Part shown: positions 1 to 41,204 of the stretch, piece after piece | Position numbering within the stretch: position 1 is the first letter of the stretch | Layout: every line of letters starts with the position of its first letter | IMG/VR virus record: IMGVR_UViG_2695420595_000014 | Span: 1-42,212 of that record | Direction: 5' to 3' (one strand) | Length of the DNA: 42,212 nucleotides | Source of the DNA: a virus | Taxonomy: Duplodnaviria > Heunggongvirae > Uroviricota > Caudoviricetes | Program-made: the position numbers and the translations under genes | The notes under the pieces: model-generated | Told to the model about the DNA's origin: nothing | Database searches by the model: none | Seen by the model: only the letters and a program-made list of their open reading frames with translations

Positions 1-1248
1 ATGGCACTGAATATTCCATTCAGAAATGCGTACTATCGTTTTGCATCCAGTTACTCATTTCTCTTTTTTATTTCCTGGTCGCTGTGGTGGTCGTTATACG
101 CTATTTGGCTGAAAGGACATCTAGGGTTGACAGGGACGGAATTAGGTACACTTTATTCGGTCAACCAGTTTACCAGCATTCTATTTATGATGTTCTACGG
201 CATCGTTCAGGATAAACTCGGTCTGAAGAAACCGCTCATCTGGTGTATGAGTTTCATCCTGGTCTTGACCGGACCGTTTATGATTTACGTTTATGAACCG
301 TTACTGCAAAGCAATTTTTCTGTAGGTCTAATTCTGGGGGCGCTATTTTTTGGCTTGGGGTATCTGGCGGGATGCGGTTTGCTTGATAGCTTCACCGAAA
401 AAATGGCGCGAAATTTTCATTTCGAATATGGAACAGCGCGCGCCTGGGGATCTTTTGGCTATGCTATTGGCGCGTTCTTTGCCGGCATATTTTTTAGTAT
501 CAGTCCCCATATCAACTTCTGGTTGGTCTCGCTATTTGGCGCTGTATTTATGATGATCAACATGCGTTTTAAAGATAAGGATCACCAGTGCGTAGCGGCA
601 GATGCGGGAGGGGTAAAAAAAGAGGATTTTATCGCAGTTTTCAAGGATCGAAACTTCTGGGTTTTCGTCATATTTATTGTGGGGACGTGGTCTTTCTATA
701 ACATTTTTGATCAACAACTTTTTCCTGTCTTTTATGCAGGTTTATTCGAATCACACGATGTAGGAACGCGCCTGTATGGTTATCTCAACTCATTCCAGGT
801 GGTACTCGAAGCGCTGTGCATGGCGATTATTCCTTTCTTTGTGAATCGGGTAGGGCCAAAAAATGCATTACTTATCGGAGTTGTGATTATGGCGTTGCGT
901 ATCCTTTCCTGCGCGCTGTTCGTTAACCCCTGGATTATTTCATTAGTGAAGTTGTTACATGCCATTGAGGTTCCACTTTGTGTCATATCCGTCTTCAAAT
1001 ACAGCGTGGCAAACTTTGATAAGCGCCTGTCGTCGACGATCTTTCTGATTGGTTTTCAAATTGCCAGTTCGCTTGGGATTGTGCTGCTTTCAACGCCGAC
1101 TGGGATACTCTTTGACCACGCAGGCTACCAGACAGTTTTCTTCGCAATTTCGGGTATTGTCTGCCTGATGTTGCTATTTGGCATTTTCTTCTTGAGTAAA
1201 AAACGCGAGCAAATAGTTATGGAAACGCCTGTACCTTCAGCAATATAG
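1..1248 (+). CDS. cscB: Sucrose:H+ symporter, LacY-family MFS permease (415 aa)
   Basis: Full-length ORF; 12-TM oligosaccharide:H+ symporter architecture; translation matches CscB as I recall it (MALNIPFRNAYYRF... start). Confidence 0.8.
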   Translation: MALNIPFRNAYYRFASSYSFLFFISWSLWWSLYAIWLKGHLGLTGTELGTLYSVNQFTSILFMMFYGIVQDKLGLKKPLIWCMSFILVLTGPFMIYVYEPLLQSNFSVGLILGALFFGLGYLAGCGLLDSFTEKMARNFHFEYGTARAWGSFGYAIGAFFAGIFFSISPHINFWLVSLFGAVFMMINMRFKDKDHQCVAADAGGVKKEDFIAVFKDRNFWVFVIFIVGTWSFYNIFDQQLFPVFYAGLFESHDVGTRLYGYLNSFQVVLEALCMAIIPFFVNRVGPKNALLIGVVIMALRILSCALFVNPWIISLVKLLHAIEVPLCVISVFKYSVANFDKRLSSTIFLIGFQIASSLGIVLLSTPTGILFDHAGYQTVFFAISGIVCLMLLFGIFFLSKKREQIVMETPVPSAI

Positions 1249-1689
1249 ACGTAAACTTTTTCCGGTTGTTGTCGATAGCTCTATATCCCTCAACCGGAAA
1301 ATAATAATAGTAAAATGCTTAGCCCTGCTAATAATCGCCTAATCCAAACGCCTCATTCATGTTCTGGTACAGTCGCTCAAATGTACTTCAGATGCGCGGT
1401 TCGCTGATTTCCAGGACATTGTCGTCATTCAGTGACCTGTCCCGTGTATCACGGTCCTGCGAATTCATCAAGGAATGCATTGCGGAGTGAAGTATCGAGT
1501 CACGCCATATTTCGCTATCAGGATTCTGTGTGATGGTTACATCGCCCGGCTCAGGGCTGTTTAGTCATCAGCGCTTTCTGACAGTGCTGAGATTTCAACC
1601 TGTTGCAGTAAAAATGAGTAGATATAAGGCAAGTGTGCTGCCAAACCCATCTTTTACGGGGTGAAGGTAGATTTCGTTTGAAGGGTATC

Positions 1690-1704
1690 TGGTGTCCCCT
1701 GCAG
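1690..1704. repeat. attL core (copy of the argW 3' terminal 15 nt)
   Basis: Exact 15-nt match to 41130..41144; sequences diverge immediately on the prophage side. Confidence 0.8.
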
Positions 1705-1777
1705 ACATCTACTTGACGAGGCAGGGGATTGATTGGAATGGTGTTTTTTAGATATGAGAAATATTTTACCCGCTATT

Positions 1778-1978
1778 TTACCCATTGGCGCGGCTTAAGA
1801 GCTTATTTTTGAATTCACAATGGTCACGATATAACCATCTTGCTCGCCCGTGGATAACTTTGGCTTTAGGCAGGTCCCCGGACTTAATCCGGTCATAGAT
1901 GAAGGTTTTACCGAAGCCAGTATCGGCCATGATGAATTTCAAATCAACCAGTGAATCAGGCTGTAGTTCGTGTTGCAT
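1778..1978 (-). CDS. torI: Excisionase / recombination directionality factor, Xis/AlpA family (66 aa)
   Basis: 66-aa ORF MQHELQPDSLVDLKFIMADTGFGKTFIYDRIKSGDLPKAKVIHGRARW...; matches TorI of KplE1 from memory; sits at the end opposite the integrase. Confidence 0.8.
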   Translation of the reverse strand: MQHELQPDSLVDLKFIMADTGFGKTFIYDRIKSGDLPKAKVIHGRARWLYRDHCEFKNKLLSRANG

Positions 1979-1997
1979 GAGTGCTATCTCCGAATAG

Positions 1998-2013
1998 GGA
2001 ATCGAACCTGCAA
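1998..2013. repeat. Second tRNA-Arg-derived segment (16 nt), internal to the prophage
   Basis: ggaatcgaacctgcaa is identical to argW positions 41144..41159 (T-arm region), just upstream of the torI start. Confidence 0.6.
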
Positions 2014-2020
2014 ATCAGGC

Positions 2021-2044
2021 AATAAAAAAACCGCATTGATGCGG
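2021..2044 (-). terminator. Rho-independent terminator (minus strand) between the 114-aa gene and torI
   Basis: Hairpin ccgca-ttga-tgcgg followed on the minus strand by a 9-nt T run. Confidence 0.6.
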
Positions 2045-2103
2045 CAATGGCAGGTCTGGATATCTTGAGAAATGAACAGGCCTCATCGAGTGTGAGGCTG
2101 TGG

Positions 2104-2448
2104 TTAGTCCTTGCGTAACTCGCTAATTCTTCTGTAAGTCTCTGGTGCTTTGTTTCCGTGTATCTTCATTTCAGACTTCAACAGAGCAACGAGGGAATCC
2201 CATTCGTTGAGGATGCCTTTGAATGCCGGAACGCGCTTTGCAACCTTGTCGAATGAATCTCTGATTTCTGGGATCTGCTCAACAAGTGCAACGCATCGTC
2301 GGAAATCGGCTGCGTCATGTGGAGCGCCGAAGTGATGACCATAGATATTCTTTTTCAGTCCACATGCGATTGAGGCAAGAGTTGCGCTACTGATGCCGAC
2401 ATCGCCAGTCGATTGCCATTTCAAAACCTTCATAGCCAAATCTGACAT
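2104..2448 (-). CDS. Hypothetical protein (114 aa from the SD-supported ATG), terminator-flanked
   Basis: ORF 2104..2475; internal ATG at 2448 preceded by GGAGA; hairpins on both sides. Confidence 0.55.
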   Translation of the reverse strand: MSDLAMKVLKWQSTGDVGISSATLASIACGLKKNIYGHHFGAPHDAADFRRCVALVEQIPEIRDSFDKVAKRVPAFKGILNEWDSLVALLKSEMKIHGNKAPETYRRISELRKD

Positions 2449-2461
2449 TTCTTGTCTCCAA

Positions 2462-2482
2462 TAAAAAACCGCCATCAGGCGG
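2462..2482 (-). terminator. Putative intra-operon terminator/attenuator hairpin
   Basis: ccgcc-atca-ggcgg hairpin followed on the minus strand by TTTTTTA; overlaps the stop of the upstream small ORF. Confidence 0.4.
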
Positions 2483-2642
2483 CTTGGTGTTCTTTCAGTT
2501 CTTCAATTCGAATATTGGTTACGTCTGCATGTGCTATCTGCGCCCATATCATCCAGTGGTTATAGCAGTCGTTGATGTCCTCTGCTTCGATAACCCTGTC
2601 GAATGGCTCTCCATTCCATTCACCTGTGACTCGGAAGTGCAT
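2475..2642 (-). CDS. Small hypothetical protein (55 aa), not in the ORF track
   Basis: ATG at 2642 with GGAGA SD; MHFRVTGEWNGEPFDRVIEAEDINDCYNHW... Confidence 0.35.
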   Translation of the reverse strand: MHFRVTGEWNGEPFDRVIEAEDINDCYNHWMIWAQIAHADVTNIRIEELKEHQAA

Positions 2643-11926: not shown

Positions 11927-12208
11927 ATGGTTACTATTGCAACTAAAAGCAAGAAAGCGGCTCGCATCGAGTCGGCCTTGCTGAACAAACTGGCACTGAT
12001 GGGGCAGAAGACATTCGCTCGAGCAATGGGGGTTCCTGAATATCAGGTAAGCCGATGGAAGAATGGTTTCTTCTCGCAGGTAAGCATGATGCTTGCTGTT
12101 CTGGAATACGGAATCGAAGACGATGAAATGGCTGAATTGACTAAGCGGCTTGCCGATTACCTGACAAAAGAAAAAGCCCCGAAGAACGGCGAATTCTTCG
12201 AGGCCTGA
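11927..12208 (+). CDS. cII: CII transcriptional activator (93 aa)
   Basis: RIESALLNK...SRWK...SMMLAVLEYGIEDDEMA closely matches lambda CII. Confidence 0.8.
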   Translation: MVTIATKSKKAARIESALLNKLALMGQKTFARAMGVPEYQVSRWKNGFFSQVSMMLAVLEYGIEDDEMAELTKRLADYLTKEKAPKNGEFFEA

Positions 12209-17730: not shown

Positions 17731-18445
17731 GTTAATAAATGGCAATGCCATCAAAATGACAAGCATTGAAATCGCTGAGTTGGTGGGTAAGCGTCATGAC
17801 AATGTGAAACGTACCATCGAAACGCTGGCTAAAAATGGTGTTATCCGGCTTCCTCAAATTGAGGTTTCCGAAAGAATCAATAACTTAGGGTTCCATGTTC
17901 AGTACGAGCATTACGTCTTCGAGGGCGAACAAGGTAAGCGAGACAGTATTGTCGTTGTTGCCCAGTTGTCGCCAGAGTTCACCGCTCGCCTTGTTGACCG
18001 CTGGCGAGAGCTTGAAGAAGCTGCAGTTAATATCCCCAAAACGCTACCGGAAGCGTTGCGCCTTGCTGCCGATCTTGCTGAGCAGAAAATGCAACTGGAA
18101 AACCAGCTCGCAATTGTCGCACCTAAAGTTGAGTTTGCCGATCGCGTTGGCGAGGCCAGCGGAATTTTGATTGGGAACTTTGCAAAGGTTGTTGGTATTG
18201 GTCAAAACAAACTGTTTGCGTGGATGCGTGATCACAAAATCCTTATTGCTTCAGGTTCCCGGCGCAATGTGCCAATGCAGGAATATATGGATCGCGGCTA
18301 TTTCACAGTGAAAGAAACAGCGGTCAACACAAATCACGGAATACAGATATCGTTCACCACAAAAATCACCGGGCGCGGTCAACAGTGGCTGACCAGAAAG
18401 TTGCTCGATAACGGAATGCTGAAAGTAACAGGGGAGGCTGCTTAA
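17723..18445 (+). CDS. Rha-family phage regulatory protein / antirepressor-like (240 aa)
   Basis: N-terminal Rha-like DNA-binding region and C-terminal KilAC/ANT-like region; assigned by family resemblance. Confidence 0.55.
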   Translation: MNELINGNAIKMTSIEIAELVGKRHDNVKRTIETLAKNGVIRLPQIEVSERINNLGFHVQYEHYVFEGEQGKRDSIVVVAQLSPEFTARLVDRWRELEEAAVNIPKTLPEALRLAADLAEQKMQLENQLAIVAPKVEFADRVGEASGILIGNFAKVVGIGQNKLFAWMRDHKILIASGSRRNVPMQEYMDRGYFTVKETAVNTNHGIQISFTTKITGRGQQWLTRKLLDNGMLKVTGEAA

Positions 18446-19855: not shown

Positions 19856-19930
19856 GGGTCAGTCGTATAAAGGTCATTACGGAAGGCTGTTAACCTTCTT
19901 ATCGTGGTTCGAGTCCACGCTGTCCCGCCA
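19856..19930 (+). tRNA. tRNA-like gene, anticodon GUU (Asn) by manual folding, with acceptor and D-stem mismatches
   Basis: 75 nt ending CCA; T-arm cgtgg-ttcgagt-ccacg; 5-bp anticodon stem with loop CUGUUAA; one T-T mismatch in the acceptor stem and one in the D stem. Confidence 0.5.
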
Positions 19931-19935
19931 AATAT

Positions 19936-20011
19936 GCTGGTTTAGCTCCAATGGTAGAGCAGTCGCCTTGTAAGCGAATGGGTAGCGGTTCAAGTCCGTT
20001 AACCAGCACCA
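19936..20011 (+). tRNA. tRNA, anticodon UGU (Thr) by manual folding
   Basis: 76 nt; perfect 7-bp acceptor stem GCTGGTT/AACCAGC, D-arm GCTC/GAGC, anticodon loop CUUGUAA, T-loop TTCAAGT, 3' CCA. Confidence 0.7.
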
Positions 20012-40968: not shown

Positions 40969-41129
40969 GGGTAAAAATCCGGTGGGTAAAATTATTTTAT
41001 CCACTTTTTACCCGTCATGGAGTGCGGCTGTCAACGATCTGACGCGAACCATTACGAACTGTGAATCTACGGAAGGCTTGATATTCAGGGGATTTTGCGG
41101 ACTGGTACGGATGGGAGCGAACTGATAAA

Positions 41130-41204
41130 TGGTGTCCCCTGCAGGAATCGAACCTGCAATTAGCCCTTAGGAGGGGCTCGTTATATCCATTTAACTAAGA
41201 GGAC
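41130..41204 (-). tRNA. argW: tRNA-Arg (anticodon CCU)
   Basis: Reverse complement reads GTCCTCTTAGTTAAATGGATATAACGAGCCCCTCCTAAGGGCTAATTGCAGGTTCGATTCCTGCAGGGGACACCA; cloverleaf folds with anticodon CCU. Confidence 0.95.

Follow-up and report, generated by a model that had tools for sequence, protein, structure and literature searches.

A conserved copy of the argW T-arm ahead of the excisionase gene torI: a possible operator outside the attachment site of argW-integrated phages

Prophages of the KplE1 (CPS-53), HK620 and Sf6 type are inserted into the tRNA gene argW by a recombination module in which the integrase gene intS and the excisionase gene torI lie at opposite prophage ends, a short core is repeated at the two junctions, and five TorI sites of GTTCG type lie by the intS promoter. 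For KplE1 the core has been published as CTGCAGGGGACACCAT; TorI sites carry the pentamers GTTCG, GTCCG or GATCG in a layout of 8+12+8 and 8+2+8+2+8 nt, the GTTCG pentamer has been defined by mutagenesis, and TorI represses the intS promoter (PintS) through such sites, while the promoter of torI has been called uncharacterised (PMC2951348). The attachment site (att) of the related phage Kapi1 has been given as AATGGTGTCCCCTGCAG (PMC8787464). Here we describe a stretch of 42,212 nt (IMG/VR record IMGVR_UViG_2695420595_000014, hereafter the window), in which a 16-nt copy of the argW T-arm stands immediately upstream of the torI leader, and we report that a 10-nt box within this copy, GTTCGATTCC, recurs ahead of related excisionase genes across Enterobacterales. 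The box is probably a selected regulatory element, a second T-arm copy and not an attachment site. Our best explanation as a whole, a T-arm-derived operator in the torI leader, outside the attachment site, is one that we hold with about even confidence. The module and the repeat were already known; the family-wide T-loop box before the excisionase gene is new, and is without description in the accessible literature.

The window holds a complete P22-like prophage, inserted once into argW via the known IntS/TorI module of KplE1/HK620/Sf6 type. An IntS-type integrase adjoins argW and is transcribed away from attL, torI lies at the prophage end opposite intS and is transcribed toward attR, and a 15-nt core, CTGCAGGGGACACCA(T), is duplicated at both junctions; described cores have 15-16 nt, and the sixteenth base differs in the window because the bacterial flank differs. 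Five TorI sites are arranged in two blocks overlapping the intS promoter, with the published spacing of 8+12+8 and 8+2+8+2+8 nt. In insert-free genomes the cscB-side left flank is directly joined to argW, and the window therefore represents a single insertion. In the module itself we found no difference from the described systems (coordinates are collected in Table 1).

Two segments at the attR side repeat parts of argW exactly. Positions 1690..1704 (TGGTGTCCCCTGCAG) equal argW 41130..41144 and positions 1998..2013 (GGAATCGAACCTGCAA) equal argW 41144..41159, so that the two share base 41144 and together cover 30 contiguous tRNA bases, as the preliminary description of this stretch had claimed. 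Its judgement that a 16-nt match is not a chance event is likewise borne out: with up to two mismatches allowed, each pattern is found only at its two places in the window, where shuffled sequence is expected to give 0.04 and 0.06 matches, and two matches arose in none of 100 shuffles. Read on the tRNA strand, the 16-mer is TTGCAGGTTCGATTCC and extends from the 5' T-stem through the T-loop to the second base of the 3' T-stem. No part of a tRNA is more highly conserved, yet the exact 16-mer matches only argW in the window; the T-loop of the phage's own tRNA-Asn differs at 2 of 12 positions, and no copy of the box was found in the window besides those in the torI leader and argW. ARAGORN detected no tRNA at 1998..2013 and there was no Rfam match there; a tRNA gene or pseudogene was rejected, there being no cloverleaf and the match being limited to the 5' T-stem, the loop and 2 nt. 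The interval separating the segments is occupied by the P arm, by torI (1778..1978, minus strand) and by the 19-nt leader that holds the Shine-Dalgarno sequence. The terminator that had also been placed in this interval is not there, the only terminator-like hairpin nearby (2030..2045) lying beyond the 16-mer. The 16-mer is identical in Sf6 and HK620.

Partial tRNA copies are a general feature of elements that integrate into tRNA genes, and the window likewise holds a tRNA-identical segment inside a tRNA-integrating phage. It differs from the usual identity blocks shared by attP and attB in that the 16-mer is 293 bp from the crossover site, with a gene between, and duplicates a part of the tRNA outside the att identity block. 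The relation between the two copies became clear when 35 att sequences were compared, drawn from Escherichia, Erwinia, Klebsiella, Salmonella, Serratia, Citrobacter, Pantoea, Edwardsiella, Enterobacter, Hafnia, Morganella and others. Next to TGCAGGG they have 10 nt with the consensus ATTCGATGTC, identical to the tRNA sequence GTTCGATTCC at 7/10 positions; over the 35 sequences the mean identity of these 10 nt to the tRNA is 5.5/10, against 2.7/13 (chance level) further out. The attP thus keeps a degenerate T-loop beside its core, and the upstream 16-mer is therefore an additional copy, far better conserved than the one adjacent to att. A contiguous 30-nt homology split by insertion of torI, one of the explanations offered earlier, is ruled against by the same observation, since attP/attR already holds its own diverged T-loop by the overlap region. 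The decayed T-loop and the core together make up an inverted repeat, G(G/A)TGT(C/A)-TGCAGGG-GACAC(C), likely to be the C-O-C' core. The upstream copy is of the tRNA (B) type, GATTCC, and not of the attP (C) type, GATGTC. What stands of the earlier interpretation is that the 16-mer is not accidental and is related to the argW T-arm; neither the split 30-mer nor the nested attachment site discussed below does.

The evidence that carries our reading comes from loci of the torI family, gathered from annotated phages, from one genome per species and from assemblies. When one mismatch is allowed, 17 of 35 distinct lineages of Enterobacterales have the box GTTCGATTCC in the 60 nt before the excisionase ATG, and the identity of their excisionases to TorI ranges from 30 to 100%; as background, these loci contain 28 matches over 202,078 positions. 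Information content is about 2 bits at each box position, compared with 0.2-0.8 bits in the flanks, which cannot be aligned across lineages with 30-50% excisionase identity. The gap between the box and GGAG is 6 nt in most lineages, and an extended form, GGTTCGATTCCC, is often conserved. The box is repeated in tandem in two unrelated lineages, at a period of 16 nt in Erwinia phage Midgardsormr38 and of 13 nt in a metagenomic lineage (L133/L134). The tandem sites lie at about 2305..2345 of locus L005 and at about 650..700 of L133, an uncultured lineage with only 30% identity to TorI. All recovered modules of the family target argW-type tRNA-Arg(CCU) and share the argW core. The box stays constant while the arm repeats change between lineages (CGGGTAAAA versus CGGGCATAA), and also while the excisionase repeats of the P' arm change (GTTCG-type versus GATGTAAC-type in phiEt88). 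A scan of IMG/VR yielded only 100%-identical E. coli copies, which inform on polymorphism within that species only.

In some lineages the match to the tRNA extends beyond the box: by TTGCAGG on the 5' side in E. coli, by CCTG on the 3' side in Serratia and Pantoea, and to the full T-arm hairpin, GACAGGTTCGATTCCCTGTC, in Edwardsiella and Pantoea stewartii, where it comes near the T-arm of Proteus-type argW. These lineage-specific extensions indicate that the box descends from the whole T-arm. The 5' flank of the box showed no covariation with the host T-stem, flanks of ACAGG or CCAGG standing beside cores of GCAGG type. In loci L017 and L033, 30 nt upstream of the excisionase gene, a terminator tail, TTTTTTATTGCC(T/C)GG, is joined directly to the Shine-Dalgarno sequence; beside L014 and L016, it looks as if about 25 nt including the box had been cleanly lost there, or gained in the others, between short CC(T)GG repeats. 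Homologues of AlpA/TorI in Pseudomonas were set aside as a comparison, their int and xis being adjacent and convergent and their architecture thus not comparable. In Proteus hauseri (locus L026, 2995..3067) a torI homologue lies about 1.3 kb from tRNA-Arg(CCT) on the opposite strand, a gap of roughly one integrase gene; our guess is that this is a minimal int-xis remnant with another gene order.

A coding explanation for the box was rejected, the distances from box to ATG being 16, 18, 19 and 25 nt, with no common frame, even if some databases list N-terminally extended 'TorI' open reading frames. RNAalifold predicted no base pairs over 12 box-bearing leaders, hairpins occurring in some lineages only, and an Rfam search with E up to 10 returned nothing but sub-threshold noise. 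With neither a conserved RNA fold nor a conserved frame, what is conserved is the linear sequence. A stretch that is short, invariant, set at a constant distance from the ribosome-binding site and sometimes duplicated has the pattern of a protein-binding operator. The same data bear on the suggestion that the box acts at the level of RNA, as a Rho-utilisation region or as a translational operator for a protein or small RNA, controlling torI expression from read-through early-left transcripts. Its constant placement with respect to the Shine-Dalgarno sequence, about -29 to -20 counted from the ATG, and the C-rich, G-poor leaders of many lineages would suit such a role, and Rho termination has been reported to limit torI expression and KplE1 excision. 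The lack of a conserved secondary structure and of any Rfam match, the fact that Rho-utilisation sites have no need of an invariant 10-mer, and the failure to identify a complementary partner RNA lead us to regard an RNA-level element as unlikely.

Conservation on this scale also speaks to the view that the 16-mer is a non-functional fossil, left behind when an ancestral or tandem element integrated at argW, or inherited from an earlier attP. The whole T-arm hairpins and the lineage-specific 5' and 3' extensions point to descent from a full T-arm, and tandem att remnants do occur at argW. One such case is Erwinia sp. QL-Z3 (locus L131, about 1000..1060), where the sequence after the attR core consists of P'-arm-type repeats, CCGTTCGC ... 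TAGTTCGC, in place of bacterial flank, a remnant left by a second, tandem element of IntS type at argW. Against a fossil, lineages with 30-50% excisionase identity keep the 10-mer invariant between unalignable flanks, its spacing to the Shine-Dalgarno sequence is fixed, and it has been duplicated twice independently; a neutral relic would have decayed, as the attP-adjacent copy did. We rate the fossil slightly below the RNA-level element, and quite improbable. Tandem integration, which the preliminary description had raised, survives as a possible ancient origin of the box; a recent scar does not fit, because the element is old, widespread and under selection.

The 16-mer could instead be a second, nested attachment and crossover site, as the preliminary description listed among its possibilities and as the GenBank record of phage CUS-3 (CP000711) implies. 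That record starts and ends with TTGCAGGTTCGATTCC, and both copies, exactly the repeat pair singled out in the window, are annotated as att cores ('attL core' and 'attR core'; CP000711.1, L003 1693..1708 and L004 1..16), being 16-nt exact direct repeats around almost the entire prophage. Were this correct, the CUS-3 virion would contain a terminator-16-mer-TGCAGGGGACACCA junction without torI. In the complete genome records of Sf6 and HK620, both sequenced from phage particles, the 16-mer is separated from int by torI, the P arm and the 15-nt core. With torI lying between 16-mer and core in these records, the real crossover site is the 15/16-nt core, of which the window holds the 15-nt copy. 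The sequence at which the CUS-3 record ends runs on into torI in Sf6, in HK620 and in IMG/VR contigs of the same context. A 135-bp attR that ends inside the 3' end of torI suffices for excision in vitro (PMC3509656); its inner primer maps to about 1784..1803 of the window, far short of the 16-mer, and both 16-mer and box thus lie outside attR as described in the accessible literature. Deletion of only the 17-bp attB core sharply lowers Kapi1 lysogeny although the T-arm remains (PMC8787464).

The 16-mer also lacks the anatomy of a crossover site, that is, an overlap of 6-8 bp with inverted half-sites, recombinant junctions and a need for the site in recombination. Identity between the two copies stops at the end of the 16-mer (CTATTCG versus TGCAGGG), leaving no common overlap region and no partner half-site. 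We built the junctions that an exchange between the two 16-mers should leave (argW 5' part-16-mer-torI leader, and terminator-16-mer-core-P' arm), and neither was present in any of 5,426 complete E. coli genomes. The nested site is thus largely refuted already, and we accord it almost no probability. In the CUS-3 record the 16-mer has been taken as the attachment core, with torI and the real core left outside the phage; its boundary is probably misplaced, and the deposited genome without the excisionase gene and the P arm. Stx2a-converting phages that start with argW sequence were set aside as irrelevant to the T-arm. They (L043; LC645439.1 1..2300) are inserted in the argW 5' end with a 24-bp duplication at positions 46..69, encode a 415-amino-acid integrase of another kind and a 63-amino-acid AlpA-like Xis, and share an early-left gene (123 amino acids) with 2104..2475 of the window.

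The HK620 and Sf6 records place a different element over the same sequence, a cII-activated promoter, pI: HK620 carries a 'phage integration' promoter at 1664..1702 with a cII site at 1689..1701, and Sf6 a pI at 18404..18431, at the end of its boundary sequence bsq2, and both cover the 16-mer. On this interpretation TTGC-N5-TTGC would bind cII, TTGCAG would serve as the -35 and GAGATA as the -10 element, and the transcript, starting too near torI for a working ribosome-binding site, would cross attP into int, so that Int is made without Xis during lysogenisation. The analogy is to lambda pI, whose cII site lies inside xis and which gives Int without Xis; the arrangement in the window mirrors lambda pI geometry, and the phage encodes a homologue of lambda CII at 11939..12202 (plus strand; 49% identity over 88 amino acids, E = 3e-24, tblastn with a manually entered lambda CII query). 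The repeat of the HK620-type element, however, is spaced by N5 and not by N6 as in lambda (TTGC-N6-TTGC); many E. coli copies have TTAC in place of its first TTGC, among them the chromosomal Escherichia loci L010, L012 and L013; and neither the TTGC repeat nor the -35 element is kept in other genera. The invariant GTTCGATTCC would sit in the promoter spacer, where conservation is not expected, a scan of 1500..2500 for sigma-70 consensus promoters found none, and the HK620 and Sf6 annotations are themselves predictions. We therefore doubt that a pI promoter accounts for the 16-mer.

How the proposed operator might work can be sketched from the comparison. A recombination protein would bind the box in the torI leader and, when bound, would limit torI expression by blocking either the ribosome-binding region or read-through transcription. 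That IntS and/or TorI binds the box with this outcome is a tentative proposal, which we advance with less assurance than the operator itself. The core-binding domain of IntS would best fit the comparative pattern, whereas TorI would fit the pentamer. In attB the box directly abuts the predicted overlap, GTTCGATTCC-TGCAGGG-GACACC, and ends where that overlap starts, which makes it the predicted left (B) integrase half-site; besides the box, the argW target is the only other thing that all these modules share, which again favours IntS. In favour of TorI, the box contains GTTCG, one of the pentamers of sites I1-I5, and TorI represses PintS through sites of this kind.

Several observations weigh against a protein-bound operator or against one or other binder. 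The pentamer in the box is followed by A in all 17 lineages, compared with a pyrimidine in all of about 20 inferred TorI sites; the invariant ATTCC extension is not a feature of TorI sites; the tandem boxes have periods of 13 and 16 nt, as opposed to the 10-nt phasing of I3-I5; the TorI-site context (C/T)NGTTCG(C/T) and phased direct repeats are absent, the box being single in most lineages; and phiEt88 keeps the box though its P'-arm repeats differ. As for IntS, the box retains the weak B-type GATTCC and not the better-matched C-type GATGTC, and isolated core half-sites are usually bound weakly. The box is absent from 18 of the 35 lineages, and the leaders of L017 and L033 resemble the same sequence minus about 25 nt, which marks the box as dispensable. 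All members of the family share one target tRNA. Finally, binding to the box, the identity of the binder and the effect on torI expression are each proposals drawn from sequence comparison.

A broader form of the operator reading is that modules with int and xis on opposite sides of attP keep a copy of the bacterial half of their target site, in the window the argW T-loop, before the excisionase gene as an 'attB-mimic' operator. The core-binding domain of the integrase, or the excisionase, would then recognise one sequence in two places, the target and the excisionase gene, which would couple the direction of recombination to target recognition. We consider this generalisation speculative and rather improbable. 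If it holds, the excisionase genes of modules that use other tRNAs should be preceded by the T-arm sequence of the tRNA concerned.

Table 1. Features of the argW recombination module and its surroundings in the window (positions in nt).
Feature	Position	Strand	Basis or remark
attR core, 15-nt copy of the argW 3' end (CTGCAGGGGACACCA, tRNA strand)	1690..1704	minus	exact duplicate of 41130..41144
Predicted C-type core half-site, degenerate T-loop AAGTAGATGT (tRNA strand)	1705..1714	minus	consensus comparison
Direct repeats GCGGGTAAAA and ATGGGTAAAA, candidate IntS arm-type sites, P arm	1764..1785	minus	inferred from sequence
torI, excisionase (recombination directionality factor), 66 amino acids	1778..1978	minus	open reading frame listing; 100% identity to HK620 HkaC and Sf6 gp18
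torI leader, Shine-Dalgarno GGAG at 1988..1991	1979..1997	minus	sequence
16-mer TTGCAGGTTCGATTCC, equal to argW T-arm; box GTTCGATTCC 1998..2007, 12-mer GGTTCGATTCCC 1997..2008	1998..2013	minus	
TTGCCTGATTTGC (TTGC-N5-TTGC), cII binding site of pI promoter as annotated in HK620	2010..2022	minus	
Intrinsic terminator of upstream early-left gene, mosaic boundary of integration module	2030..2045	minus	terminator scan
intS, tyrosine integrase, 385 amino acids	39811..40968	minus	open reading frame listing; 98% identity to HK620 Int
TorI sites I1-I5, P' arm of attL	41034..41124	minus	layout and pentamers as published for KplE1
TorI site I5, CAGATCGT	41034..41041	minus	
TorI site I4, TGGTTCGC	41044..41051	minus	
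TorI site I3, CAGTTCGT	41054..41061	minus	
TorI site I2, CAGTCCGC	41097..41104	minus	
TorI site I1, CAGTTCGC	41117..41124	minus	
argW, tRNA-Arg(CCT)	41130..41204	minus	ARAGORN and sequence; attL core 41130..41144, T-arm 16-mer 41144..41159

Further features of the attR side complete the picture. The core takes in both the predicted 7-bp overlap, TGCAGGG, and the C' half-site, GACACC. On the P' arm, the motif of the candidate arm-type repeats is found again close to the intS promoter; the repeats become CGGGCATAA on both arms of g341c and phiEt88; in the torI leader, CGGAGAT is kept across lineages. About 18 nt from the core (window 1696..1727), CCCCTGC forms the inverted complement of the core GCAGGGG and is kept in most lineages. 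ATCCCCTG appears again in the P' arm, and CCCCTGC could represent a further site of the P arm, either core-like or for a host factor. From 2026 onward the window belongs to another mosaic block, matching HK022, 434 and Stx phages, and in E. coli three different terminators meet the same module sequence at ...TTTTTATT(G/A)CCTGATTTGCAGG. Between the upstream early-left gene and the box (2024..2098, minus strand) lie a hairpin, an AU-rich stretch and the terminator; the hairpin, GCCTCACACTCGATGAGGC, is kept in g341c, L034 and L129, and an isrK-like Rfam match over 2024..2098 stayed below threshold, at 14 bits against a gathering score of 50. Elsewhere in the prophage, tRNA-Asn(GTT) and tRNA-Thr(TGT) lie in tandem at 19856..20011 (plus strand), as has been described for the related phage Kapi1 ahead of the lysis genes.

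These results bear on site-specific recombination, on prophage stability and on the annotation of reference phages. They correct what is likely a boundary error in the public CUS-3 record, deposited without the excisionase gene and the real att core, and they leave the annotated 'pI/cII' promoter of HK620 and Sf6 unsupported by comparative data. For the argW-integrated phages themselves, they place a small, sharply conserved element at an uncharacterised control point of a well-studied excision system, the expression of torI, which decides prophage stability, and the box offers a direct handle for mutagenesis. If the attB-mimic idea proved true, it would represent a new kind of link, in phages, between excisionase expression and the target specificity of the integrase.

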